NCBI GenBank assembly: GCA_031393885.1 | Contig: JANMWG010000132.1 | Location: forward strand, 1 to 55,062 | Direction of reading: 5' to 3' | From: Betaproteobacteria bacterium | GTDB lineage: Bacteria > Pseudomonadota > Gammaproteobacteria > Burkholderiales > Ga0077523 | Length of the DNA: 55,062 nt | Part shown: one piece after another, positions 6,902 through 55,062 of the stretch | Layout: each line of letters starts with the position of its first letter | Position numbering within the stretch: the stretch's first letter is position 1 | The notes under the pieces: model-generated | Seen by the model: the letters and a program-made list of their open reading frames with translations, nothing else | Databases searched by the model: none | What the model was told of the DNA's origin: nothing | Position numbers and translations under genes: made by a program

Positions 6902-7002
6902 GAAATGACGCCCACCCCCAGACTGCGCTGCGCTGCGGCTTCCCCCAGGGGCGCAGCGTCCTCGGGGGACCCTCTGGGCGCTGCCCCTTCGCTCGTGAAT
7001 GA
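6902..7002. repeat. REP-like repeat, family R1, single copy
   Basis: gaaatgacgcccacccccagactgcgctgcgc...cccccaggggcgcagcgtcctcgggggaccc...gccccttcgct matches units at 13417-13772, 31649-31972 and 54758-55062. Confidence 0.85.
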
Positions 7003-10775: not shown

Positions 10776-13037
10776 ATGCATTGGATACAAACGTGGCGTA
10801 GCGCGCCGTTGATCGTTGTCGGGCTGGCACCGTTCTGCGCCCACGCCGACAACCCCGCCGCAGCGCTGGAGGCCCCGCAAGTCGAAGTCATCGGCACCAC
10901 CCCCCTGCCGGTGCTTGCCACTCCGCTTCGCAACGTCCCGTCCAACATCCAGTCGGTCACCGACAGGGATCTCGAAAAACGCCGCGCCGGCGACATCACC
11001 GAGTTCATGGAAACCAACCTCGGCTCGGTGAACCTCAACCAGGCCCAGGCCAATCCGTTCCAACCGGACGTCAATTTTCGCGGCCTGACCGCATCGCACC
11101 TGCTGGGACTGCCGCAGGGGTTGTCGGTGTTCTACGACGGCGTCCGCGTGAACGAGGCATTCGGCGATACCGTGAACTGGGATCTCATTCCGCAATCGGC
11201 GATCGCCAACATGACGCTGGTGCCAGGATCGAACCCGGTCTACGGACTCAATACGCTGGGCGGAGCGCTCGCGATTCAGACCAAGTCGGGTTTCACCTAC
11301 CCCGGCGTGTCGGCAAGCGTCTACGGTGGTTCGTTCGGTCGACAATCGGCGACGATCGAAGCCGGTGGCCACGGCGAGCGCATCGACTACTTCGTGACCG
11401 GCAACTATCTCGAGGAGAACGGTTGGCGTCAGTTCTCGCCGAGCCGGGTCGCGAACGTGTTCGGCAAAGTCGGCTATCAGAACGACCGTACCGACTTCGA
11501 TCTGTCATACACCGGCGCCAACAACTCGCTCCAGGGGACCCAGGCATTGCCGCTGTCGATGTTCGGTGATCGCACCCAGCCCTACACCTGGCCGGACAGC
11601 ACCGCCAACACACTCAATTTTCTCAACGCCAAGGGGAGTCACTTCTTCAACGACACGACGCTGCTAGCCGCCAACCTCTACTACCGCCAACTGGATCAGG
11701 ACACGTTCGCGAGCAACGTCAACGACAACTGCGCCGGCGGGTGCCCCCCGGGAGCGTTCCCGGCATCCAACGATTCCTCGACGATCCGCCAGAAGGGAAC
11801 AGGCAGCAGCGTGCAGTTGTCGCTGCTCGATGACCTGTTCGGCAAAGGCAACCAGTTCACCGTCGGCGCCACTGCCGATCTGGGCGACACCCGCTACCGC
11901 CAGTTCAACCAGGAAGCGGTGTTCACGCCAAGCCGCGGAACAGCCGGCGTCTCCCCTTTCGTGCTCGACACCGATGTGAAGACGACCAATCACTATTACG
12001 GCGTTTTCGTGACCGACACGCTCACCCTCAACCCGAAATGGTCGATGACAGCGTCCGGACGCTACAACGTCGCGCAGGTGAAGATCACCGACCAGTCCGG
12101 CACCAATCCAGCCCTGAATGGCGACCACAAATTCATCCGCTTCAATCCGGCTCTGGGATTCACCTACAACCCGACAGCAACGGCCACGACCTACGCCAAC
12201 TACAGCGAAGGCATGCGGGCGCCGACACCGGTGGAACTCACCTGCGCGGATCCCGCCGCGCCCTGTCGCCTGCCGAATGCCTTTCTGGCCGACCCACCGC
12301 TCAAGCCGGTGGTGAGCCGCACCTACGAGGTGGGGGCTCGCGGCAAGCTCCTGGGGTGGCTGGGCTGGAACGCCGCATTGTTTCGCACCGATCTGCGCGA
12401 CGACATCCAGTTCATTTCGACCCAGGGCGCGACCCTCAACTCAGGCTATTTCCAGAACGTCGGCGACACCCGCAGGCAGGGGGTGGAACTCGGGGCACGG
12501 GCACAACGCGGTGCTCTCACGCTTACCGCCAACTACACCTATCTGCGGGCCACGTTCGAAAGCGGTTTCCTGCTGAACAGCCCCAACAATTCATCGCGCG
12601 ACGCCAACGGCGACATCCGGGTGGCGCCAGGCAACCGCATCCCGGGCATGCCGGCGCATCTGCTCAAGCTACGCGCCGACTACGCGTTCTCCGAAGGATT
12701 CATCGTCGGCGGCAACGCGCTGCTCTCCACCGATCAGTTTGCCCGTGGCGACGAAAACAACCAGGACCAGACCGGCAAGGTTCCGGGATACGCCGTCGTC
12801 AATCTCGATGCGCGGTACCAGATCACGCCGCAGATTCAGGTATTCGGACGACTGCTCAACTTGTTCGACCGAAAGTACGAAACCTTCGGCATCCTCGGAT
12901 CGAATTTCTTTCAGGGCGGAGCATTCAACCCGGTGAACGCTGGACCGGAGCAGTTCCGGGCGGTTTCGGCGCCGCGTGCGTTCTATGTCGGCGTGCGCTA
13001 CGACTTCACCAAGCCTACCGCCTCCGGAGCGCAGTGA
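10776..13037 (+). CDS. TonB-dependent outer-membrane receptor
   Basis: 753 aa with a signal peptide, plug region (VEVIGTTPLP...NLGSVNLNQAQANPFQPDVNFRGL) and a barrel ending ...AFYVGVRYDF, followed by an atypical 9-aa tail TKPTASGAQ. Confidence 0.9.
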   Translation: MHWIQTWRSAPLIVVGLAPFCAHADNPAAALEAPQVEVIGTTPLPVLATPLRNVPSNIQSVTDRDLEKRRAGDITEFMETNLGSVNLNQAQANPFQPDVNFRGLTASHLLGLPQGLSVFYDGVRVNEAFGDTVNWDLIPQSAIANMTLVPGSNPVYGLNTLGGALAIQTKSGFTYPGVSASVYGGSFGRQSATIEAGGHGERIDYFVTGNYLEENGWRQFSPSRVANVFGKVGYQNDRTDFDLSYTGANNSLQGTQALPLSMFGDRTQPYTWPDSTANTLNFLNAKGSHFFNDTTLLAANLYYRQLDQDTFASNVNDNCAGGCPPGAFPASNDSSTIRQKGTGSSVQLSLLDDLFGKGNQFTVGATADLGDTRYRQFNQEAVFTPSRGTAGVSPFVLDTDVKTTNHYYGVFVTDTLTLNPKWSMTASGRYNVAQVKITDQSGTNPALNGDHKFIRFNPALGFTYNPTATATTYANYSEGMRAPTPVELTCADPAAPCRLPNAFLADPPLKPVVSRTYEVGARGKLLGWLGWNAALFRTDLRDDIQFISTQGATLNSGYFQNVGDTRRQGVELGARAQRGALTLTANYTYLRATFESGFLLNSPNNSSRDANGDIRVAPGNRIPGMPAHLLKLRADYAFSEGFIVGGNALLSTDQFARGDENNQDQTGKVPGYAVVNLDARYQITPQIQVFGRLLNLFDRKYETFGILGSNFFQGGAFNPVNAGPEQFRAVSAPRAFYVGVRYDFTKPTASGAQ

Positions 13038-13075
13038 GGCACGCAAGGAATTAACAAGATCGGAGCCCCAGACGC

Positions 13076-13103
13076 AAAAAAGCTGCGTTTCCGCAGCTTT
13101 TTT
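13076..13103. terminator. Bidirectional rho-independent terminator (TBDR and orphan pqqA converge on it)
   Basis: aaaaaagctgcg-tttc-cgcagctttttt has a 7-bp stem flanked by an A-tract and a T-tract, so it is usable on both strands. Confidence 0.8.
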
Positions 13104-13123
13104 GGTACTACCGAAAACCGGGA

Positions 13124-13195
13124 TTAGCGGTTTGCGATGTACATCGTGACTTCAAAGCCAAAACGCATTTCGGTATAGGCGGGCTTGGTCCACAT
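13124..13195 (-). CDS. pqqA: PQQ precursor peptide PqqA, second (orphan) copy
   Basis: The reverse complement reads ATG TGG ACC AAG CCC GCC TAT ACC GAA ATG CGT TTT GGC TTT GAA GTC ACG ATG TAC ATC GCA AAC CGC TAA, giving [23 protein letters not shown]. This is identical in protein sequence to the pqqA at 19067. AGGAG lies 7 nt upstream. Not in the ORF track because it is too short. Confidence 0.85.
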
Positions 13196-13379
13196 GGTGA
13201 GGCTCCTTGATGGGTTGATGAATCAAAACAACTCAAAACCACTGCTCGTGTTGCGGTACCGGAAGATACCCACCGCGTTTGCGGCTTGAACCCATTATCC
13301 GGATCCACACGCAGCGGACCATGGCAAAACGCTGAAAGCCTGGTCAGGATTTTCATTAGATTCCTCCGCCGCGTCGCAA

Positions 13380-13389
13380 CATGAATATC
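13380..13389 (-). promoter_or_regulatory. GATATTCATG motif about 190 nt upstream of orphan pqqA (shared with pqqA1)
   Basis: The same 10-mer occurs at 18875-18884, at nearly the same distance from the other pqqA start (-194 versus -192). Confidence 0.3.
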
Positions 13390-13416
13390 CTCTCGGGGTA
13401 GCAACCGAAGAGGCGC

Positions 13417-13772
13417 TCAGAAGCGGAGCGATGCCGAACGAAAGGAGCAGCTAAAAGCGAAGGGGCAGCGCCTACTGAACGAAGGGCACCTCTGAAGCGA
13501 AGGAGCCGCGCCCACAGGGTCCCTCAGGGACGGGGCGCCCCTCAAGGGAGAAGGCGGATCACAGCGATGCTGAACGAAGGGCGTCTCTGAAGCGAAGGGG
13601 CAGCGCCCACAGGGCCTCCCGAGGACGCTGCGCCCCCGGGGGGAAGGCGTAGCGCAGCCTGGGGGTGTGCCGAACGAAGGGAACCTCTGAAGCGAAGGGG
13701 CAGCGCCCACAGGCCCCCCCGAGGACGCTGCGCCCCCTCGAGGGGGAAGGCGTAGCGCAGCCTGGGGGTGGT
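13417..13772. repeat. REP-like repeat array, family R1, about 3.5 tandem units
   Basis: The unit gaacgaaggg..cctctgaagcgaaggggcagcgcccacagg..cccgaggacgctgcgccccctcgagggggaaggcgtagcgcagcctgggggtg is repeated head-to-tail. Each unit has the central palindrome CCCCCTCGAGGGGG. Confidence 0.9.
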
Positions 13773-13778
13773 CCACAC

Positions 13779-14426
13779 TCACGGCTCCATCAGTTTGTAC
13801 CGCATGGCGATGATCGCCAGTTCGGCGGAGTTCGAGGCGCCGAGCTTCTGCTTGATGTTGTACAGATGGGTTCCGATGGTTCGCGGGCTAAGCGACATCA
13901 CGTCCGCGATGTCGACCACCGACTGGCCACGGGCCAGCGCCAGGAACACCTTGAATTCCTTCTCCGACAGCATGTCGACCGGATTGCGTTCGCCGGTGAG
14001 CTGCTGGAGGGCCAGTTCATGTGCGATCGCGGGTTCGAGAAAGGTACGGCCCTGTTGGACCTGCCGGATCGCCTGGATCAATGCTTCGGCGGCGCTGCGC
14101 TTGGACAGGTACCCGAGGGCACCGGCCTTGAGCACCCGCCGCGCATGCATGGCGTCTTCATGCGCGGTCAGCACCAGCACTTTCATGTTCGGCGCGCGCG
14201 CCAGGATCCGCGACAAGGCCTCGAGCCCACCGATGCCCGGCATGGACAAATCGAGCACCAGGACATCGGGCTTGACCTCGGGCACCCGCCGGACCGCTTC
14301 CTCGCCGCTCTCGGCTTCCGCCACCACTTTGATATCGGCCGAAGCTTCCAGCAGCAGCCGGAAACCCATCCGCACCACGGCGTGATCGTCAGCCAGCATC
14401 ACGCGAATTTCAGCTCCCGGATTCAT
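13779..14426 (-). CDS. Response regulator, NarL/LuxR (FixJ) family
   Basis: Receiver domain (RVMLADDHAVVRMG...DVLVLDLSMPG) plus a C-terminal LuxR HTH (LSEKEFKVFLALARGQSVVDIADVMSLSPRTIGTHLYNIKQKLG). Confidence 0.9.
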   Translation of the reverse strand: MNPGAEIRVMLADDHAVVRMGFRLLLEASADIKVVAEAESGEEAVRRVPEVKPDVLVLDLSMPGIGGLEALSRILARAPNMKVLVLTAHEDAMHARRVLKAGALGYLSKRSAAEALIQAIRQVQQGRTFLEPAIAHELALQQLTGERNPVDMLSEKEFKVFLALARGQSVVDIADVMSLSPRTIGTHLYNIKQKLGASNSAELAIIAMRYKLMEP

Positions 14427-16189
14427 GCGCCCTGCTCCTGATCCAGCGATGCGGTTGCGCCATCTGCGCCCGCTTGCTCACCCAGCGGAATGCGCACCTT
14501 CACCGCGAGGCCGCCGCCGGGCACGGTATCGAGCGCGAACTCACCCTTCAGGGCTTCGACCCGCTCGCGCATGCCCATGATGCCGAAGCGCACCGAATCG
14601 GTACCGTCGCGCTCGGTGAGCCCACGTCCGTTGTCGCGCACCAGAACATCGAGGCAGCCTGTCTCTTGTCGGATCACGGAAATCTCGATCTGTGTTGCAT
14701 GGGCATGCTTGACCACATTGGTGAGGCACTCCTGGACGATGCGAAAGACGGTGATATTGACACGCTCGCCGAGTTCGTCGAGGTGACCCTCGAGATGCAC
14801 GCGGCAGGCGATCTCGGGATGCCGCTGCCCCCAGCTGCCGATGGCATCCTCGAGCGCTTCGCGCAGGCCGAGATGATCGAGCGCGCTGGGCCGCAACTGA
14901 CGGATGATGCCGTGAACCGAGTCGTACATGTGACTGGCGACCGACACGATGGTCTCGGCGCTGCGGTGGATGTCGCCACCGGAAGCCGCGGTTTTCTGCA
15001 CGATGACGGCGCCGATGGTCTTGATCGCGGTCACGCATTGGCCGAGTTCATCGTGCAACTCGCGGGCGATGGCGCGACGCTCCTCCTCCAGCCGGACCTG
15101 CGTGAGCTGGGTGAGTTTGCGATTCTGGGCAAGCTGCAGCTCGGCCTCGCGGGCACGCTTGGTTTCGGTGATGTCACGCATCGACAGGATCTCGCCGATC
15201 ACCTGATCAGTCACCGGATCGACCAGCGGCGACGCCGACAACGCGACCTCGACCAGCCGCCGGTCGCGCGTGAATCGCTGGGTCTCGACATGATCGATGC
15301 TACCGCGCTCCCGCACCAGCCGCGACCAGCCCTCCTGCTCGGCCGCGCGTTCCGGCGGCACCGTGAGGCTTGCCGGGTGGCCCACGATCTGCGAAACGTT
15401 CCAGCCGAACAGACGCTCGGCAGCCGGATTCCAGTACGTGATCAGGCCGTCCGGATCGACGATCACGATCGCATCGCCGGACTGCTCGGCGATGAGCGCC
15501 AGCCGCCGGTTCTCCGCATGCGATTGTTCCAGCTCAACGGCCATGCCGTTGAAGGTATGGCTGATGGCATCGAACTCGGGCAAGGCGAAGCCGGGAAGGC
15601 GGGCGTGGTATTCGCCGCGCTCCATGCGTTTCAACCCTTCCAGTACGATGCTCACCGGCCGCAGCGAGCGCCCGGTCAGGAAGAACACCAGAACGTTGAC
15701 GACCGCCAGGAACGCGACGATCACCACCAACACGCGCTTGGCATCTTCCCAGGCGTCCAGCACGGAGCGCGACGAATCGGTGGTCACCGTGACATTGCCA
15801 CCCTCCACCGCCAGATTCATCACCGGCAGCTCGGGCGCCACGAGCTTCGAGAACCATGGCGGCGCCGACACGCCGACCTTGTAGAGCGATGGCGGCGACG
15901 CATAGATCAGCTTGTCGTCGTGATCGAACAACCGGATGTCGTGCGCGCGCACCCGTCCGATCTCGCGCAACAAGCTGCGCAGGACGGCGTTGCCGTCCTC
16001 GCCGTCGCGCGCGATGAGCCGCGAGTCGTTGATGACCGCCGCCAGGAGCTGCAAGGTGATGCGATTGGCGCCCTCCATCTCCTCGCGGATGGAACGCCGC
16101 GTGTCGCCCAGTGCAAGCTGCAGCACCGCGAGCGTGAACACGCTGGTCAGGACCGTGATCAGCAGATTGATGCGAAACCGCAGGCTCAT
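14423..16189 (-). CDS. Sensor histidine kinase (two TM segments, HAMP, PAS, HisKA_3, HATPase)
   Basis: MSLRFRINLLITVLTSVFTLAVL is TM1, a second TM is VLVVIVAFLAVVNVLVFFL, PAS is IVIVDPDGLITYWNPAAERLFGW, the H-box is ARELHDELGQ and the ATPase motifs are VRDNGRGL / GIMGMRERV. The start ATG at 16189 overlaps the pip stop (ATGA), and the 3' end overlaps the RR start by 4 nt. Confidence 0.88.
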   Translation of the reverse strand: MSLRFRINLLITVLTSVFTLAVLQLALGDTRRSIREEMEGANRITLQLLAAVINDSRLIARDGEDGNAVLRSLLREIGRVRAHDIRLFDHDDKLIYASPPSLYKVGVSAPPWFSKLVAPELPVMNLAVEGGNVTVTTDSSRSVLDAWEDAKRVLVVIVAFLAVVNVLVFFLTGRSLRPVSIVLEGLKRMERGEYHARLPGFALPEFDAISHTFNGMAVELEQSHAENRRLALIAEQSGDAIVIVDPDGLITYWNPAAERLFGWNVSQIVGHPASLTVPPERAAEQEGWSRLVRERGSIDHVETQRFTRDRRLVEVALSASPLVDPVTDQVIGEILSMRDITETKRAREAELQLAQNRKLTQLTQVRLEEERRAIARELHDELGQCVTAIKTIGAVIVQKTAASGGDIHRSAETIVSVASHMYDSVHGIIRQLRPSALDHLGLREALEDAIGSWGQRHPEIACRVHLEGHLDELGERVNITVFRIVQECLTNVVKHAHATQIEISVIRQETGCLDVLVRDNGRGLTERDGTDSVRFGIMGMRERVEALKGEFALDTVPGGGLAVKVRIPLGEQAGADGATASLDQEQGA

Positions 16190-17166
16190 GCGAGCAGGGC
16201 AACCGTGCCGCGCGACACCAGTTGGTCGCGCAGGGAGTCGGCTGCCGCAACCAGGGCCGATTCGAGGTGGGGATGCGATGCCGCATGCTTGGCCGCGGCG
16301 ATCATCGACAACCGTGCCGAAGGCCAACGCCGGGCGACTTCGAACGCGGTGACCGGCGGACACACGAAATCCATGGCGCCTTGCAACAGGATGCCCGGCA
16401 GATGCGCGATCCGCGCCACGCCATCGAGCAATTCACCCGGCCGGAAAAAGCAGTCGTGCGTCAGATAGTGGACCTGCACCCGAGCACGGGCGAGCCCGGC
16501 ATCGTCGGCGACCGCGACCGTGGGCGATCCGGCAACGGGGGCTTCACCGATCGACATCACCACCGACTCGAAGGCGTTCCAGCGCGCCGCGGCCTGCACC
16601 TGGACAGTCGGATCGGGGTGGCGCAGGGCGGCGTCGTATGCCCGCACCAGTTGCGGCCAGGGAACGCCGGGCGTGGTTGCATACAACGCCTCCCGCGCAG
16701 CCGGTACGAACTGACGCAATCCATCGAAGTACCAGTCGAGTTCGCCGTGCGACGCGAGGAAGATCCCGCGCAGGATGAGATGGGTGACCCGATCAGGGTA
16801 GGTCTGGGCGTAGGCAAGCGCGAGGGTACTGCCCCACGATCCGCCGAACAGGACCCAGCGATCGACTCCCAGCAGCAGCCGCAATTGTTCGATATCGCCG
16901 ATCAGGTGGGCCGTGGTGTTGTTCGCCGTGCCCCCGGCGGGCGTGCTGCGCCCGCAACCGCGCTGGTCGAACAGCACGATACGGTAGAAGGCCGGGTCGA
17001 AGTAGCGACGGTGATCGGGCTTGGTGGAGCTGCCGGGGCCACCATGGAGAAACAGCACGGGGCGCCCCGCCGGATTGCCGCTCACCTCGAAGTAGATCCG
17101 GTGGCCACCGGTGGCGTCGAAGTGGCCGCTTCGATGCGGGTCTATCGCCGGGTAGAGGGCGCTCAT
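16186..17166 (-). CDS. pip: Prolyl aminopeptidase (proline iminopeptidase, alpha/beta hydrolase)
   Basis: MSALYPAIDPHRSGHFDATGGHRIYFEVSGNPAGRPVLFLHGGPGS...LFGGSWGSTLALAYAQTYP is the classic Pip signature with the GxSxG nucleophile. Confidence 0.9.
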   Translation of the reverse strand: MSALYPAIDPHRSGHFDATGGHRIYFEVSGNPAGRPVLFLHGGPGSSTKPDHRRYFDPAFYRIVLFDQRGCGRSTPAGGTANNTTAHLIGDIEQLRLLLGVDRWVLFGGSWGSTLALAYAQTYPDRVTHLILRGIFLASHGELDWYFDGLRQFVPAAREALYATTPGVPWPQLVRAYDAALRHPDPTVQVQAAARWNAFESVVMSIGEAPVAGSPTVAVADDAGLARARVQVHYLTHDCFFRPGELLDGVARIAHLPGILLQGAMDFVCPPVTAFEVARRWPSARLSMIAAAKHAASHPHLESALVAAADSLRDQLVSRGTVALLA

Positions 17167-17244
17167 GGATCCACCAGAGGCAATCCAAGCCAGGCAACTG
17201 CGTGATCGAAGCATCCCGATGGTTTCATGTGCGACAAGCCAGAT

Positions 17245-18807
17245 TCACTCGGTGAGGCGAAAGGTGATCGGTACCGTGACAGTAAGCTCTTGACCACGCA
17301 GTTCTTCGGGGAGCGGAGGCAACTGGCGAGCCCTCTTCACCATGGCCATTGCCTCTTGGTCGAGGATGTCGTGCCCGCTCGATTTCGCCACCGACACTTG
17401 CTTGACTTTCGCATCAGCGGTCATCAGAACCAGAACCTCGGTGGTACCGGTCCATCCAAGCGTGAGCGCCCGTTTCGGATAGTGCTGGTCCTTGCCGACC
17501 TCACGTGAAAATCTCAGTCCGTAACGCTCCAGCACCGCGTGATCGATCGTGGTCGGCTGAGGTGGACTCTGGATCGTGGGCTTGCCGGTTTGCGGGCGCA
17601 AGGCCGTTGGCGCGGCGGTCAGGGGAACCACCGCCGGTGCGGCCAGAGACGGCGCAACAACCGACGGCGGAGCGGCGACCGTGGCAGCGGAAGCAACTGG
17701 CGCCGACGGCACCAATGGCGCAACTACCGGCCTGGATGCAATCGGCCTCGGCGCCGCCGTCGTTGCCGAAACCACCGGTTGGGTCACGACCTGTGGCACG
17801 ACGGTCGGCGGCGCGACAGCCACCTGGGCGGCCGACGCCGTGGGCGCCGCCTCGACCAGGGGGGCCGGCCGGACAGCCTTCAGGTCGGGGCGCTGATCCG
17901 GGCGGACAGGTGCCGGCACGGCATCGGGATGCGCGGAAGGCGCCACCGGGATGACCGGGTCCAGCCGCGCTTCCACCTTGGCGCTCAGGGTGGGCACGGC
18001 CTTAAGCTGCGGTCGCGTGTCGGGGCGCAGGTCAGGCCTGACTTCGGGACGCGCTTCGACTCGCGGTTCAGGCCGGACCTGCGGCCTCAGGTCCGGCGCT
18101 GGCGCCGATGGTGCCGCGATCGGCGCTGGCGCTGCCACCCGTGGCGTGGGCAGCAACTGCGGTCGTGCCTCGGCCCGCAAGTCGGGCCTGATCTCGGGGC
18201 GAGCTTCGACCCGCGGTTCAGGCCTGATCTGTGGCCTCACGTCCTGTGGCGACGATGGCGCAACGATCGGCGCCGGCGCCGCCACCCGCGGTTCGGGCCG
18301 CAGTTCCGGGCGCAGGTCGGGCCGAAGCTGCGGCCTCACGTCGACCCGCGGCTCGGGCCGTACTTCGACCCGCGTTTCCGGCATCGGCACCGGCTTCGGT
18401 TCCGGTCGGGCTTGCAGCACGGGCGCCGACCTCGGTGGCGGCACGGGTTGCACGACCAGTGGCGGGGGTGCCGGCACCGGGACCGGTTTCGCAACCGCAT
18501 GCGGCACAACGGGTTTCGCGGGTTGCCGCGGTGCAACCTTGACCGGCGGCTTCACCTTCACCGGCGCCGGACGCCTGGGCGGCGGCTCAGGAATGGGCGG
18601 CGGCTCCCGCTTTGGCGGCGTGATCAGTTCGATCTCGAGCACCTTCGGCTCGGCCGCGGGGATGTGGCGCAGTTCCGGCAGGAACGCGACCACCAGGGCA
18701 TGAGCGACGACGGAGCACACGAGCGCGAACACGAACGAATGCTCGCGATACCAGGTTGCGAACGGACCTGGGGCCGCGGAAACTCGGGACAGGATTGCGG
18801 TCGACAT
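17245..18807 (-). CDS. tonB: TonB-family energy transducer with a greatly expanded Pro-rich repeat spacer
   Basis: N-terminal TM FVFALVCSVVAHALVVAFL. About 350 aa of P/R/E/V repeats follow (RPEPRVEARPE(I/V)RPDLR... recurring). The C-terminal TonB domain is YPKRALTLGWTGTTEVLVLM...VSVAKSSGHDILDQEAMAMVKRA..PLP......VTVPITFRL. Confidence 0.85.
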   Translation of the reverse strand: MSTAILSRVSAAPGPFATWYREHSFVFALVCSVVAHALVVAFLPELRHIPAAEPKVLEIELITPPKREPPPIPEPPPRRPAPVKVKPPVKVAPRQPAKPVVPHAVAKPVPVPAPPPLVVQPVPPPRSAPVLQARPEPKPVPMPETRVEVRPEPRVDVRPQLRPDLRPELRPEPRVAAPAPIVAPSSPQDVRPQIRPEPRVEARPEIRPDLRAEARPQLLPTPRVAAPAPIAAPSAPAPDLRPQVRPEPRVEARPEVRPDLRPDTRPQLKAVPTLSAKVEARLDPVIPVAPSAHPDAVPAPVRPDQRPDLKAVRPAPLVEAAPTASAAQVAVAPPTVVPQVVTQPVVSATTAAPRPIASRPVVAPLVPSAPVASAATVAAPPSVVAPSLAAPAVVPLTAAPTALRPQTGKPTIQSPPQPTTIDHAVLERYGLRFSREVGKDQHYPKRALTLGWTGTTEVLVLMTADAKVKQVSVAKSSGHDILDQEAMAMVKRARQLPPLPEELRGQELTVTVPITFRLTE

Positions 18808-18870
18808 CGAAGAAGCTTAGGAGGGAGCGCGGGGGGAGGCAATGACCGGATCAGGCCACTGCCGGGAATC

Positions 18871-18885
18871 TCATGATATTCATGA
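18871..18885 (+). promoter_or_regulatory. TCATGA-TAT-TCATGA motif upstream of pqqA1
   Basis: tcatgatattcatga holds two copies of the self-complementary hexamer TCATGA. It contains the GATATTCATG 10-mer shared with the orphan pqqA leader. Confidence 0.3.
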
Positions 18886-19066
18886 CATCACGTTGCTGAT
18901 TTTTCTGTGGAATCCACTGACGGCCTGCCAGACACTGGTATCCGAACTCAAAGGTGCAGTGCTTGGCCTGCCAGGAGCACATCGGGCAGAAGAAGCGCAA
19001 CCAGAAGTGTTCATCGGGGCGATGAAGTCATCGCCATCACCAAGACCTTAACATCCGGAGGTTAAT

Positions 19067-19138
19067 ATGTGGACCAAGCCCGCTTACACCGAAATGCGTT
19101 TCGGCTTTGAAGTCACGATGTACATCGCCAACCGCTGA
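19067..19138 (+). CDS. pqqA: PQQ precursor peptide PqqA
   Basis: ATGTGGACCAAGCCCGCTTACACCGAAATGCGTTTCGGCTTTGAAGTCACGATGTACATCGCCAACCGCTGA encodes [23 protein letters not shown], with the conserved E-x3-Y cross-link pair. GGAGG lies upstream. Compare Klebsiella [23 protein letters not shown]. Confidence 0.95.
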   Translation: MWTKPAYTEMRFGFEVTMYIANR

Positions 19139-19153
19139 TCATCGCGGCTGGTA

Positions 19154-19188
19154 ACGAAAGCCCCGACCCGTTCGGGGCTTTCGTTTTT
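19154..19188 (+). terminator. Intrinsic terminator/attenuator hairpin between pqqA and pqqB
   Basis: acgaaagccccga-cccgt-tcggggctttcgt followed by TTTT: a perfect 13-bp stem 16 nt after the pqqA stop. Confidence 0.8.
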
Positions 19189-19259: not shown

Positions 19260-20174
19260 ATGCGTATTCGGGTTCTCGGATCGGCGGCGGGCGGCGGATT
19301 TCCCCAGTGGAACTGCAACTGCGCCAACTGCGATGGGGTACGCAAGGGCACCATGCGCACCCGGGCACGTACCCAGTCGTCGATAGCGGTCAGCGGCAAT
19401 GGCATCGACTGGGTGCTGTTCAACGCCTCGCCGGATCTGCTGACCCAGATTCAGGGCTTTCCAGCGCTGCAACCGGGGCGCGGCATCCGCGATACCGGCA
19501 TTCGCGCGGTGGTGCTGATGGACGGGCAGATCGATCACACCACCGGGCTGCTCATGCTGCGCGAAGGCAAGCCGCTCGAGATCTACTGCACCGACATGGT
19601 TCGGGAAGACATGACCACCGGCAACCCGCTGTTCAATATTCTCGGCCACTATTGCGGGGTCATCTGGCATCAGCTGCCGACGGCGCCCGGGTCCGGTTTC
19701 GAGGTGGTCGGCGCCGAACATCTGACATTCACCGCCATCGCGCTCAAGAGCAAGGCGCCGCCCTACTCGCCCCATCGCGACAACCCGCACGAGGGCGACA
19801 ACATCGGCATGCGCGTCACCGACACGCGCACCGGCAAGAGCCTGTTCTACGCGCCCGGTCTGGGCGAGATCGAACCGCACCTCGTGCCGCACCTCGCCGC
19901 TGCCGATGCGATCATGGTCGACGGCACCTTCTGGACCGATGACGAGATGGTGGCGCTCGGCGTCTCGAAAAAACGCGCCCGCGAGATCGGCCACCTGCCC
20001 CAGTCCGGGCCCGGTGGCATGATCGACGTGCTGACGCCGCTGCCGGCTTCACACAAAATCCTGATCCACATCAACAATACCAATCCCATCCTGGATGAAG
20101 ACTCCCCACAGCGTGCCGAGCTTGCAAAGCATGGTATCGAGGTGGCCTTCGACGGGATGGACTTCACGCTCTGA
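19260..20174 (+). CDS. pqqB: PQQ biosynthesis protein PqqB (MBL fold)
   Basis: [28 protein letters not shown]... is the canonical PqqB N-terminus. Operon position is after pqqA. Confidence 0.95.
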
Positions 20175-20185
20175 CGGAGACCGCC

Positions 20186-20905
20186 ATGGGTGCCGCCGAA
20201 CATCTGCCGTGGACTCGTGAGGAGTTCGAAGCCCGGATCCGCGCCAAGGGCGACCGCTACCATATTCACCACCCGTATCAGGTGGCGATGAATGCGGGGC
20301 GGCTGACGCGCGCACAGATCCAGGGCTGGGTGTGCAACCGCTTCTACTACCAGACCGCGATTCCGATCAAGGACGCCGCGGTCATGTCGAACATGCCGGA
20401 CCGCGAGCATCGCCGCCTGTGGATCCAGCGCATCCTCGATCATGACGGCACCGCCGGTGACGAAGGCGGAATCGAGGCGTGGCTAACGCTTGCGGATGCA
20501 GTCGGACTCGAGCGCGCGGAGGTCACCTCGTTGCGACACGTCCTGCCCGGCGTGCGCTTTGCAGTCGACGCGTACATCAACTTCGCCCGCACCCGCCCCT
20601 GGCAGGAAGCCGTCTGCTCGTCGCTGACCGAACTGTTCGCCCCCGAGATCCACAAAGAGCGCCTCGCCAACTGGCCGCAGCACTATCCGTGGATCGACAA
20701 GGCGGGCTACACCTACTTCCGCAAACGCCTGTCGGAAGCGCGCCGTGACGTGGACCATGGCTTGCGCGTCACGCTCGAACACTTCCGCAGCCGCGAGCAG
20801 CAGGAACGCGCGTGCGACATCGTCCAGTTCAAGCTCGACGTGCTGTGGACCATGTGCGACGCGATGATGGTCAACTACGGCATCGGCGACACCAGGATCG
20901 GATGA
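20186..20905 (+). CDS. pqqC: Pyrroloquinoline-quinone synthase PqqC
   Basis: [43 protein letters not shown] is the canonical PqqC sequence. Confidence 0.95.
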
Positions 20906-21207
20906 CGGTCATGGCGACCCCGACCCGTGTGGCCTTCGATCACGACGCACTCATCGAACTCGCCAAGTACTTCCGCTTTCAGTGGGAGCCGGTGCAGGAC
21001 TGCCATGTGCTTCTTTACCCGGAAGGCATGGTGAAGCTGCCGGGCAGCGCCGGCGAGATCATGAAGCGGGTCGACGGCAGTTGCAGCCTGAACGGGCTGG
21101 TCGCAGCACTGGCCACACAATTTCCCGGCGTCGACCTGCGCGCCGACGTGATCGACTTTCTCGAGGTGGCACATGGAAACGGCTGGATCCGCGAAACAAC
21201 CCGGTAA
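20902..21207 (+). CDS. pqqD: PQQ biosynthesis peptide chaperone PqqD
   Basis: [36 protein letters not shown] is the PqqD signature. The ATG overlaps the pqqC stop (ATGA). Confidence 0.9.
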
Positions 21208-22336
21208 CCCCCTCTGGCTGCTGGCGGAGATCACGTACAAGTGCCCGTTGCACTGCGTGTTCTGCTACAACCCGATCGATTACACGCAATACGGTCCTGA
21301 GCTGAACACCGACGAATGGCTGAAGGTGCTGCGGGAAGGGCGCGAACTCGGCGCCACCCAGCTCGGCTTCTCGGGTGGTGAGCCCCTGGTTCGCGACGAT
21401 CTCGAGATCCTCATCGCAGAGGCGCGCAATCTCGGCTACTACACCAACCTGATCACCTCGGGCGTCGGTCTCACCGAAAAGCGCATCGCCGCCTTCAAGG
21501 AAGGCGGACTGGACCACATCCAGCTTTCGTTCCAGGACTCGACGCGCGAAATGAACGACTGGCTGTCGAGCACCAAGACTTTCGAATTGAAGAAGCGCAC
21601 GGCCGAGTTGATCCAGAAATACGACTACCCCATGGTGCTCAATGTGGTCCTGCACCGGCACAACATCGACCACACCCAGCAGATCCTCGAACTGGCCGAA
21701 ACCCTGGGGGCTGAGTACGTCGAACTCGCGAACACGCAGTATTACGCCTGGGCCTTCGAGAATCGCGACCAGTTGTTGCCGAGCCGCGACCAGATCCTGC
21801 GCGCCGAAGACGCCACCAACCGGTTTCGCGAGAAGGTCGGCAACGCCATGAAGATCTACTTCGTGGTACCCGACTACCACGCGACCCGTCCAAAGGCCTG
21901 CATGAATGGGTGGGGTTCTCTGTTCGTGACAGTCACCGCCGACGGCATGGTACTGCCGTGTCACGAGGCCCGAATGCTGCCGGGCATCACGTTTCCCAAC
22001 TCGCGCGAGCATGATCTGCGCTGGATCTGGTACGACTCGCCCGCGTTCAACGCCTATCGTGGCGACGGGTGGATGAAAGATCTCTGCCGCACCTGTCCGG
22101 AAAAGGAAAAGGATTTCGGCGGCTGTCGCTGCCAGGCTTTCCTGCTGACCGGCGACGCGACCAATGCGGATCCGGTCTGCGACCTGTCACCGCACCATCA
22201 TCTGGTCGTCGAAGCAGTCGAAAAAGCGGATCGCCCCACGCTGCCCCAGAACGTGAAGCCGATCCTGTTTCGAGACGACCGCACGTCGCGCACCCTCACC
22301 GCCGCCAAGGACAAAACGACTGCACCGGTGAGCTGA
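21173..22336 (+). CDS. pqqE: Radical SAM/SPASM enzyme PqqE
   Basis: PLWLLAEITYKCPLHCVFCYNP contains the CxxxCxxC motif, and the C-terminal Cys-rich SPASM region is CRTCPEKEKDFGGCRCQAF. Overlaps pqqD by 35 nt. Confidence 0.95.
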   Translation: METAGSAKQPGNPLWLLAEITYKCPLHCVFCYNPIDYTQYGPELNTDEWLKVLREGRELGATQLGFSGGEPLVRDDLEILIAEARNLGYYTNLITSGVGLTEKRIAAFKEGGLDHIQLSFQDSTREMNDWLSSTKTFELKKRTAELIQKYDYPMVLNVVLHRHNIDHTQQILELAETLGAEYVELANTQYYAWAFENRDQLLPSRDQILRAEDATNRFREKVGNAMKIYFVVPDYHATRPKACMNGWGSLFVTVTADGMVLPCHEARMLPGITFPNSREHDLRWIWYDSPAFNAYRGDGWMKDLCRTCPEKEKDFGGCRCQAFLLTGDATNADPVCDLSPHHHLVVEAVEKADRPTLPQNVKPILFRDDRTSRTLTAAKDKTTAPVS

Positions 22337-25820: not shown

Positions 25821-25968
25821 CGGTGCCCGCCGGGCCGCCAGCGGCCAGAGTCCGCTGGCGTTTGGCAGGCACAGACAGTCCGCAGGGACTGTCTGTGTCC
25901 GGCCTCACCTCGCCAAGGGCACCGGCCCCCTCGAGGGGGAAGGCGAAGCGCAGCCTGGGGGTGGTTTG
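25821..25968 (-). repeat. Repeat family R2, right copy (inverted relative to 24733-24886)
   Basis: The core 25823-25926 is the reverse complement of 24779-24882 with 3 mismatches. The R1-like head ...ccccctcgagggggaaggcgaagcgcagcctgggggtgg lies at the outer end. Confidence 0.9.
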
Positions 25969-31648: not shown

Positions 31649-31972
31649 GATGAAACGTTTACCCCCAGGCTGCGCTGCGCTACGCCTTCCCCCAAGAAGG
31701 TCGCCTTGACCGCTTGCTCGCACAAGCTGCTGCGCATCCTCAATGCCATGGCACGCGCCCGCCAGCCTTGGAGCGACCAGTTCCATGGCCTCAGCGCTTG
31801 ACATGGAACACAGTTGCTCCAGGGGGCGCACCGTTCCTCGAGGGACCCTGTGGAGAGGGACACCCACCCCCAGGCTGCGCTGCGCTACGCCTTCCCCCTC
31901 CAGGGGGCGCCCCGTTCCTCGGGGGACCCTGTGGACGGGGCCCCTTCGCTTCTGAAGTCCCTTCGTTCAGCA
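31649..31972. repeat. REP-like repeats, family R1, two units; the first is interrupted at its central palindrome
   Basis: Unit 2 (about 31862-31972) is intact: ...ccttccccctccagggggcgcc.... Unit 1 reads ...ccttccccca[126 bp]agggggcgcacc.... Confidence 0.85.
31697..31801 (+). pseudogene. 3'-terminal remnant of an IS110/IS1111-family transposase gene inside a REP unit
   Basis: The in-frame translation KVALTACSHKLLRILNAMARARQPWSDQFHGLSA* matches the conserved IS110-family C-terminus (..KVAL.AC.RKLL.ILNAM....PW). The whole insert spans 31695-31820. Confidence 0.55.
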
Positions 31973-31979
31973 CCAAGCC

Positions 31980-54757: not shown

Positions 54758-55062
54758 GGAAGCGACTGGAGGGGGCAGTCTCAGAAGCGGAGGGGCAGTT
54801 CGCGCCGGGCCGCCAAGCGAACTGCTCCCCCGCAACGGTGAACGAAGGGTTCCTGCGAAGCGGAGGGGCAGCGCCCACAGGGTCCCCCGAGGACGCTGCG
54901 CCCCCTCGAGGGGGAAGGCGAAGCGCAGCGCAGCCTGGGGGTGGGCGTCACCTCCCCACAGGGTCCCCCGAGGACGCTGCGCCCCCTCGAGGGGGACGGC
55001 GACGCGCAGCGCAGACTGGGGGTGGGCGTCACCTCCCCGCAGGGTACCCAGAGGAATGTTGC
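54758..55062. repeat. REP-like repeat array, family R1, about 2.5 units, running to the window edge
   Basis: ...cccacagggtcccccgaggacgctgcgccccctcgagggggaaggcgaagcgcagcgcagcctgggggtgggcgtcacc... is repeated. Confidence 0.9.

Follow-up and report, generated by a model that had tools for sequence, protein, structure and literature searches.

Why should a bacterium with a complete pqq operon keep a second pqqA gene some 6 kb away, on the opposite strand, for the very same peptide? The question is raised by the 55,062-nucleotide stretch of DNA analysed here as a whole (hereafter the window), and it includes three narrower ones: whether the second copy is a real gene, how old its place in the genome is, and what controls it. 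The two pqqA genes and the features needed for judging them are the following.

13124–13195, minus strand: pqqA2, the 23-codon gene of the PQQ precursor peptide, with a TAA stop and Glu15-X3-Tyr19 kept (TIGR02107 match, synteny)
13203–13208, minus strand: Shine–Dalgarno sequence AAGGAG, 7 nt 5' of the pqqA2 ATG (read from the sequence)
19067–19138, plus strand: pqqA1, the operon copy, with a peptide identical to that of pqqA2 and a TGA stop (translation, TIGR02107)
19261–22336, plus strand: pqqB, pqqC, pqqD and pqqE, a complete biosynthetic set 3' of pqqA1, all above the equivalog cut-offs

Both open reading frames, with their identical proteins, lie where a preceding sequence-only reading had placed them, and the ribosome-binding site which it ascribed to pqqA2 is found in AAGGAG; a purine-rich GGAG/GGAA block occupies the equivalent spot upstream of pqqA2 in relatives, according to the upstream alignment. 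The PqqA peptide scores 50.1 bits on NCBIfam TIGR02107 (cut-off 20), and a six-frame scan of the whole assembly (546 contigs, 4.69 Mb, 96% completeness; the window is its contig C228) gave exactly two pqqA genes above this cut-off, both at 47.6 bits. The 23-residue peptide, ...FGFE15VTMY19IANR, has Glu15 and Tyr19, the Glu-X3-Tyr pair from which PQQ is built. The biosynthetic genes score 426 bits on TIGR02108, 359 on TIGR02111, 107 on the PqqD model NF002535 and 516 on TIGR02109.

The gene pqqA2 thus belongs to the PqqA family by its profile match, its Glu-X3-Tyr pair, the presence of pqqBCDE in the genome, its start codon, ribosome-binding site and stop codon, and its conserved position. Within the family, it fits the orphan or multicopy class, being located outside the operon, 6 kb off and on the opposite strand, with a predicted promoter-like block and a terminator of its own. 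Judged from sequence, pqqA2 is a genuine, intact second PQQ precursor gene maintained by selection. By itself such a gene is ordinary, since further pqqA copies have been described and it is within reach of annotation pipelines. It had been described as unannotated, which holds for the ORF track only and fails overall, as the exact peptide is already recorded in NCBI nr.

The place of pqqA2 was followed in relatives, as the sequence-only reading had proposed. In a scan of 40 relatives, pqqA was found in all 24 genomes of the same genus, usually as a pair 5–6 kb apart on opposite strands, and some genomes carry a tandem extra pqqA on one side or the other. Seventeen regions were compared gene by gene, 16 of them from within the genus and the remaining one from a different family of the same order. 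All 17 have the same divergent order, pqqB-pqqA1 facing away from tonB-pip-kinase-regulator-pqqA2, and in every one of them pqqA2 lies on the strand of the regulator gene, 130–230 nt past its stop codon. Beyond the genus, the order was sampled evenly with 151 genomes, and in nine families a pqqA occurs 100–250 nt 3' of the regulator orthologue.

Alignment of the regulator with public loci groups the window with uncultured Burkholderiales/Betaproteobacteria MAGs. A module with one pqqA, pqqB-pqqA-(tonB)-pip-kinase-regulator, is present in Pseudohongiella, Panacagrimonas, a Rhodocyclaceae MAG and Ferrovum, and the module with two pqqA genes occurs in a set of Burkholderiales MAGs. By this comparison of gene order, the pqqA2 arrangement is old, fixed in the genus and kept in at least nine families of the order. 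A recent duplication of pqqA2 is ruled out by the synteny, and the position conserved in the genus and in nine families means that the gene is neither recent nor decaying.

The same conclusion had been drawn before from the two coding sequences alone. Pairwise alignment reproduced the reported 5 differences in 72 nucleotides (GCC/GCT, TAT/TAC, TTT/TTC, GCA/GCC and TAA/TGA), that is, four synonymous third positions plus the second base of the stop codon, and when 130–250 nt of flank are added on each side the similarity stops at the ORF borders. This pattern had been taken to indicate purifying selection on the peptide and to speak against a recent or decaying duplicate. Synteny and the peptide core RFGFEVTMY, which is invariant across pqqA2 orthologues (amino-acid changes within the genus fall mostly at positions 3 and 6), bear the conclusion out; the argument from four synonymous differences is weak, since these sites are constrained. 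At third positions of codons for identical amino acids, identity between species is 0.83 for pqqA1, 0.76 for pqqA2 and 0.55 for the neighbouring regulator gene. In six species whose regulator genes are 0.47–0.81 identical at such positions, pqqA is identical or nearly so at both loci, with at most one third-position difference. As the synonymous sites of pqqA are themselves constrained, four synonymous differences understate the age of the copies.

Selection is probably not the only process that keeps the two peptides alike. The paralogues co-vary within genomes (both MWNKPE..., both MWTKPA..., both ending ...IYNR, or both starting MAW...), and an old split between Ser in the first copy and Thr in the second persists in several members of the genus and in the outgroup family. 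Within genomes, differences between pqqA1 and pqqA2 are bimodal, 0–2 or 5–8 of 69 nt. In the lineage of the window, five sites of pqqA1 have the base typical of pqqA2, whereas the sister species retain the pqqA1-type base there. Purifying selection alone is insufficient as the cause of peptide identity, given the bimodal differences and the pqqA2-type states in pqqA1. Purifying selection with occasional gene conversion would be the simplest reading, and with only 69 nt to compare it is suggestive only.

That pqqA2 might be a silent or decaying duplicate with no role is, on this evidence, scarcely credible. Its operator is degenerate in this genome (see below), and pqqA has been reported, in work cited in PMC11317620 and as summarised there, to be dispensable in M. 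extorquens AM1, where the orphan copies were left unexamined. Against this, the ORF, ribosome-binding site, core motif and terminator of pqqA2 are all intact, and the same place across the genus and nine families, together with the invariant peptide core, contradicts decay.

The 6 kb between the two copies hold genes which bear on the question of control, and a REP-like array; the convergent receptor gene next to pqqA2 is listed with them.

13779–14426, minus strand: NarL/LuxR-type response regulator, receiver plus GerE helix-turn-helix (Pfam Response_reg, GerE), the proposed binder of the palindrome
14423–16363, minus strand: sensor histidine kinase, HAMP-PAS-HisKA_3-HATPase (Pfam), syntenic in all relatives
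16186–17214, minus strand: pip, prolyl aminopeptidase (S33 alpha/beta hydrolase), 288 bits on TIGR01249 against a cut-off of 259.75
17245–18807, minus strand: long TonB-family protein (Pfam TonB_C), opening the minus-strand cluster, in divergent orientation to pqqA1
10776–13037, convergent with pqqA2: TonB-dependent receptor gene
13417–13772, no strand assigned: REP-like array of 3–4 units of ~100 bp with internal repeats, separating the regulator gene from the promoter region of pqqA2

The Pfam and NCBIfam domains agree with the earlier statement that tonB, pip and a NarL-type two-component pair separate the copies. In most loci, across several orders, pip lies between pqqA1 and the kinase gene, and tonB is present in the genus and in many relatives and missing from several loci with a single pqqA. 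The regulator stays under the thresholds of the NCBIfam models which it matches (UvrY/GacA, 195 bits against 280; ErdR, 64 bits against 390).

The TonB-dependent receptor gene, which shares the terminator of pqqA2, was considered as a functional partner and rejected: it adjoins pqqA2 in the nearest relative only, and the flank differs elsewhere. On the PqqU model the receptor scores 114 bits against a cut-off of 1200. The REP-like array is likewise, as far as the compared sequences indicate, species-specific and outside the conserved design. The nearest relative has a single REP-like unit between the regulator gene and pqqA2, and further REP-like copies lie at intergenic sites of the window, at ~6942–6993, 25925–25965, 31674–31973 and 54839–55010.

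Alignment of the upstream regions of all copies revealed a 17-bp palindrome, CTCATGA-N3-TCATGAG, upstream of both pqqA1 and pqqA2. Most of the 37 pqqA upstream regions have it in perfect form, and its spacer is always A/T. From its end to the ATG there are 177–246 nt at pqqA1 and 102–162 nt at the first pqqA2, and at both genes a hexamer with conserved A2 and T6 starts 44–45 nt 3' of it. In the window these elements are as follows.

18870–18886, plus strand: PAL1, CTCATGATATTCATGAC, one arm mismatch; located in the divergent promoter region (distance to the tonB start 63 nt, to the pqqA1 ATG 180 nt)
18931–18936, plus strand: -10-like hexamer GACACT of the predicted pqqA1 promoter, ~44–45 nt past PAL1 (GACACT/GAGACT in relatives)
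13343–13359, minus strand: PAL2, CTAATGAAAATCCTGAC, three arm mismatches; ends 147 nt before the pqqA2 ATG and aligns with the perfect palindromes of relatives
13294–13299, minus strand: -10-like hexamer GATAAT of the predicted pqqA2 promoter, starting 44 nt past PAL2 and ~98 nt before the ATG
13076–13103, both strands: bidirectional intrinsic terminator A6-GCTGCG-TTTC-CGCAGC-T6, common to pqqA2 and the convergent TonB-dependent receptor gene
19153–19185, plus strand: hairpin and T run between pqqA1 and pqqB, terminator or attenuator, -23.9 kcal/mol, with the stem GAAAGCCCCG...CGGGGCTTTC conserved in relatives

Another candidate for the shared element of pqqA2, the 10-mer GATATTCATG at 13380–13389, was dropped because the nearest relative reads GCAGTTCATG there; the orthologous element is the one at 13343–13359. 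PAL2 occurs in the nearest relative in an identical degenerate form, and in these two genomes the control of pqqA2 may be weakened or altered by the three arm mismatches.

In the -10-like box of pqqA2, A2 and T6 are kept in all 18 genomes at a fixed spacing from the palindrome (GAGAAT, GACAAT, TAGACT and similar). The -35 region is poor at both pqqA genes, as is expected of an activator-dependent promoter. The leader of pqqA2 had been put at about 200 nt; the conserved hexamer ~98 nt before the ATG predicts a shorter one, of ~90 nt.

At the other end of the gene, the bidirectional terminator which had been proposed for pqqA2 and the receptor gene is clear on folding. The hairpin A6-GCUGCG-GAAA-CGCAGC-U6 (13076–13103) lies between the receptor stop at 13037 and the pqqA2 stop at 13124, and the 76-nt stretch folds at -27.6 kcal/mol (z = -3.4 against shuffles). 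A consensus promoter and terminator scan of 12900–14000 returned neither a sigma-70 promoter nor a terminator. It probably missed the hairpin because the A and T runs take part in the stem, and since the terminator is clear on folding we give little weight to this negative scan. In nearly all relatives terminators stand 3' of both pqqA1 and pqqA2, the one after the last pqqA2 copy being a GC-rich hairpin with a U tract. An Rfam search of the leaders and intergenic regions gave no family, the best matches (E 0.1 and 0.38) being far under the gathering scores.

These elements bear on the possibility that pqqA2 lacks its own promoter and is transcribed simply as the terminal gene of the tonB-pip-kinase-regulator unit. 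Its position on the regulator's strand, ~130–230 nt away in most relatives, would allow this, but all relatives have the conserved palindrome and -10-like block in the stretch that separates the two genes, and in this genome the hairpin-rich REP array of ~350 nt intervenes as well. We regard such read-through as very improbable.

The palindrome is almost private to the pqqA genes. PAL1 is the only match with at most one mismatch in the whole assembly. A complete 5.3-Mb genome of the genus has two such matches, both of them the pqqA sites, and another relative likewise has two; two further genomes have one extra site each, one of these upstream of a DUF1800 gene, so that the count is 2–3 sites per relative genome. 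The element therefore has the traits of an operator: it is an inverted repeat that precedes its targets, keeps a constant spacing to the promoter and seldom occurs in the rest of the genome. It is found before pqqA also in the single-copy loci of Pseudohongiella, Panacagrimonas, Rhodocyclaceae and Ferrovum, where pqqA lies beside pip-kinase-regulator. In Methylobacillus it precedes pqqA, and the kinase-regulator pair is present but unlinked, among unrelated genes; in Methylophilus sp. 42 it is located upstream of pqqB.

The same palindrome at the same spacing before both pqqA genes argues for co-regulation. From the distance between the copies and the genes lying between them, the sequence-only reading had suggested the reverse, a separate regulation of precursor supply, and the common 17-bp palindrome with its equal -10 spacing speaks against this suggestion. 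In its full form it holds that pqqA2 answers signals other than those of pqqA1 and provides an independently controlled precursor pool. There are grounds for it: the copies have distinct promoter regions and terminators, the sequences between palindrome and -10 box differ, and with three mismatches in PAL2 against one in PAL1 the affinities could differ. Elsewhere, pqqA copies are expressed very unequally in Methylovorus and related strains (PMC9851590), and the orphan copies of M. extorquens AM1 respond to lanthanides, which most other pqq biosynthesis genes do not (PMC11317620). Nevertheless, in essentially all relatives a palindrome at equal spacing precedes the two copies and is almost absent from the rest of the genome, a pattern characteristic of one regulator acting on both, and we hold separate regulation to be quite unlikely. 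For this species it keeps some probability, owing to the degenerate PAL2 and the REP array, because of which the coupling of pqqA2 to the regulator may be looser here than in most of the relatives.

Which protein reads the palindrome? The neighbouring NarL/LuxR-type regulator was followed in the 151 sampled genomes by scoring 20 regulator candidates per genome. Orthologues have at least 55% identity, mostly above 61%, and are set apart by a clear gap from paralogues, at 49% or less. On this definition, the orthologue was detected among the candidates scored in 40 of the 47 genomes bearing pqqA and in none of the 104 lacking it (raw counts, which ignore kinship). In most families it lies within a few kb of pqqA, and in at least 20 sampled genomes the palindrome stands 100–250 nt upstream of a pqqA. 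One genome with pqqA has a perfect palindrome and no regulator orthologue among the 20 candidates scored out of 59, so that an orthologue there may have escaped detection.

The palindrome might instead be bound by a transcription factor encoded elsewhere, with the two-component system controlling other things, e.g., tonB-pip or uptake. Binding by the regulator is, after all, deduced from linkage only; in Methylophilaceae the kinase-regulator pair is not located beside pqq, and some genomes, e.g., those of family f3, have the regulator orthologue and no recognisable palindrome at up to one mismatch. We nonetheless consider this explanation unlikely, because it accounts poorly for the co-occurrence counts just given and for the fact that the regulator adjoins pqqA and the palindrome in many families and at least three orders. 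The shape of the site points the same way: dimeric GerE/LuxR-type helix-turn-helix domains (NarL/FixJ family) suit a 7-3-7 inverted repeat. Judging by co-occurrence, adjacency across orders and repeat shape, the adjacent NarL/LuxR-type regulator is most likely the reader of the palindrome.

Taken together, the probable explanation of the locus is that pqqA2 is functional and that the two-component system activates both pqqA genes via the palindrome, raising the precursor without the enzymes. Under this explanation, pqqA2 would be a monocistronic unit consisting of an operator, a promoter, a leader of ~90 nt, a ribosome-binding site, 23 codons and an intrinsic terminator, placed where the tonB-pip-kinase-regulator cluster, divergent from pqqA1BCDE, ends. 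The PAS kinase would phosphorylate the NarL/LuxR-type regulator, which would bind the palindrome as a dimer and activate both pqqA promoters together. PAL1 may have the operon of the regulator itself under its control as well, since it is located between the divergent promoters. Part of the transcription started at the pqqA1 promoter would continue into pqqBCDE. The binder of the palindrome, the sign of the regulation, the transcription starts and the dosage rationale are what we infer from the genomes compared.

The dosage rationale is the following. One PqqA peptide is consumed for each PQQ made, while PqqB–E are catalytic. Since the peptide is spent and the enzymes turn over, a second, terminator-bounded pqqA would raise the amount of precursor and not of enzyme. 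A plausible reason for a high precursor demand is given by the PQQ alcohol-dehydrogenase genes of this genome, of which three exceed the TIGR03075 cut-off, with six more near-full-length matches below it.

A broader proposal, which we put forward tentatively and hold to be slightly more open to doubt than to belief, is that the kinase, the regulator and the palindrome form a dedicated, undescribed PQQ-precursor regulon. It would extend over several gammaproteobacterial lineages and over the Burkholderiales as defined by GTDB, Methylophilaceae included, its targets would be essentially pqqA and its own operon, and pqqA2 would be its built-in second output. The linked prolyl aminopeptidase could then be the missing PqqA-processing peptidase where a linked pqqF is absent.

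Because PQQ synthesis uses up the peptide, the supply of precursor is important to PQQ-dependent metabolism and to the industrial production of PQQ. To this subject the locus adds a testable design, i.e., a small, near-private operator common to both precursor genes, together with a sensor-regulator pair which in our sample is restricted to genomes with pqqA. Methylobacillus is cultivable and has the palindrome before pqqA, so that the regulatory idea is genetically testable there. What deserves further work is less the extra gene, which is ordinary, than the conserved palindrome with its link to a two-component system restricted to pqq. The open-access literature searched contains no description of a pqqA operator, regulator or arrangement of such kind, and within this literature the operator-regulator link appears to be undescribed. 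According to a 2023 paper on PQQ production, it is unclear by which molecular mechanism PQQ biosynthesis is regulated (PMC9851590).

Extra pqqA copies in some methylotrophs, to which the sequence-only reading had referred, are indeed on record. Methylorubrum extorquens AM1 has the orphan genes pqqA2 and pqqA3, which respond on their own to lanthanide availability (PMC11317620). Methylovorus sp. MP688 has five pqqA genes, and PqqA supply was found to be rate-determining in it according to Ge et al. 2015 (PMID 23828377), as cited in PMC11317620. In the methanol-utilising PQQ producer FJNU-6/FJNU-A26, five copies are expressed very unequally (PMC9851590). The copy in the window resembles the methylotroph orphans in being an extra, stand-alone precursor gene away from pqqBCDE, for which its own transcription is predicted here. 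It differs from them in its fixed and conserved address, directly 3' of a two-component regulator gene, 6 kb from pqqA1 and on the opposite strand, and in sharing a defined palindrome with the operon copy.

As regards the regulator, in Pseudomonas putida pqq transcription is driven by the LuxR-type activator AgmR (PMC12997753). The system of the window is like AgmR (PedR1/ErbR) and PedS2-PedR2 (ExaDE/EraSR) of Pseudomonas in combining a NarL/LuxR-class regulator with a HisKA_3-type kinase partner (PMC12997753), a likeness of class that makes the relation a candidate one. In Pseudomonas, however, the system lies in the ped cluster with one pqqA, whereas in the window the two pqqA genes flank the pair along with pip and tonB.

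In other bacteria, a hairpin between pqqA and pqqB acts as an attenuator, giving more pqqA than pqqBCDE transcript. The locus under study is similar in having a conserved GC-rich hairpin with a T run after pqqA1 (19153–19185), which would likewise yield more precursor than enzyme. Unlike the route based on the hairpin only, pqqA2 would reach the precursor excess by means of a whole extra transcription unit.

The two PQQ precursor genes, pqqA1 in the pqq operon and pqqA2 as the second copy, each show an identical or near-identical sequence across six species. Between species, the synonymous conservation of third positions among the loci of relatives L034-L050 reaches 0.83 in pqqA1 and 0.76 in pqqA2. 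The adjacent regulator gene, at 0.55, is far less conserved at such positions. This comparison points to a constraint acting at the nucleotide level, which could stem from the codon usage of a strongly expressed mini-gene, from mRNA structure or from conversion.

In one relative from the same genus (G004, contig C79; L049:3400-3700), the stop codon of pqqA1 is gone, with TGC standing in place of the TGA or TAA found in the others, and the frame runs on as a stretch of 31 residues and beyond. The pqqA2 gene of this genome is intact. Either the missing stop is a sequencing error, or pqqA2 may be the sole normal precursor gene there.

Three features of the window lie in or beside the tonB-pip-kinase-regulator cluster that separates the two pqqA genes:

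18870-18886: PAL1, the pqqA1 copy of the palindrome with consensus CTCATGA-N3-TCATGAG; the divergent tonB-family gene starts 63 nt downstream of it, at 18807
16186-17214: prolyl aminopeptidase gene (S33), matching TIGR01249 above its cut-off, with an equivalent gene in the loci of relatives L034-L100
13417-13772: array of 3-4 REP-like units, each about 100 bp long, flanked by the regulator gene on one side and the promoter region of pqqA2 on the other

Since PAL1 is only 63 nt from the divergent gene, the tonB-pip-kinase-regulator operon could be autoregulated through this putative site. The prolyl aminopeptidase gene is nearly constant in the pqqA-kinase-regulator module across several orders (the window and L034-L100), and on this linkage its product is a candidate PqqA-processing or PQQ-related peptidase. 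The REP-like array is represented by one unit at the same place in the nearest relative. Further copies of the family are scattered in the window (approximately 6942-6993, 25925-25965, 31674-31973 and 54839-55010).

In the genome of the window (G000), the PQQ-dependent alcohol dehydrogenase family TIGR03075 is matched over nearly its full length nine times, on contigs C115, C499, C313, C56, C379, C269, C495, C349 and C441; three of these matches exceed the curated cut-off. This quinoprotein complement is large relative to a 4.7-Mb genome.

Two relatives carry the palindrome at a third site outside the pqq region (L051:3869-3885 on G015:C25, and G027:C29:14485-14501). The G015 copy is perfect, with a DUF1800 gene about 120 nt downstream, and may point to an extra regulon member. 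The same palindrome stands about 110-135 nt ahead of pqqA in Methylobacillus (L134, L135, L139). In Methylophilus sp. 42 (L136) it precedes pqqB by about 190 nt, and the interval contains no recognisable pqqA. The kinase-regulator orthologues of these Methylophilaceae show 60-65% identity and are located amid unrelated genes.
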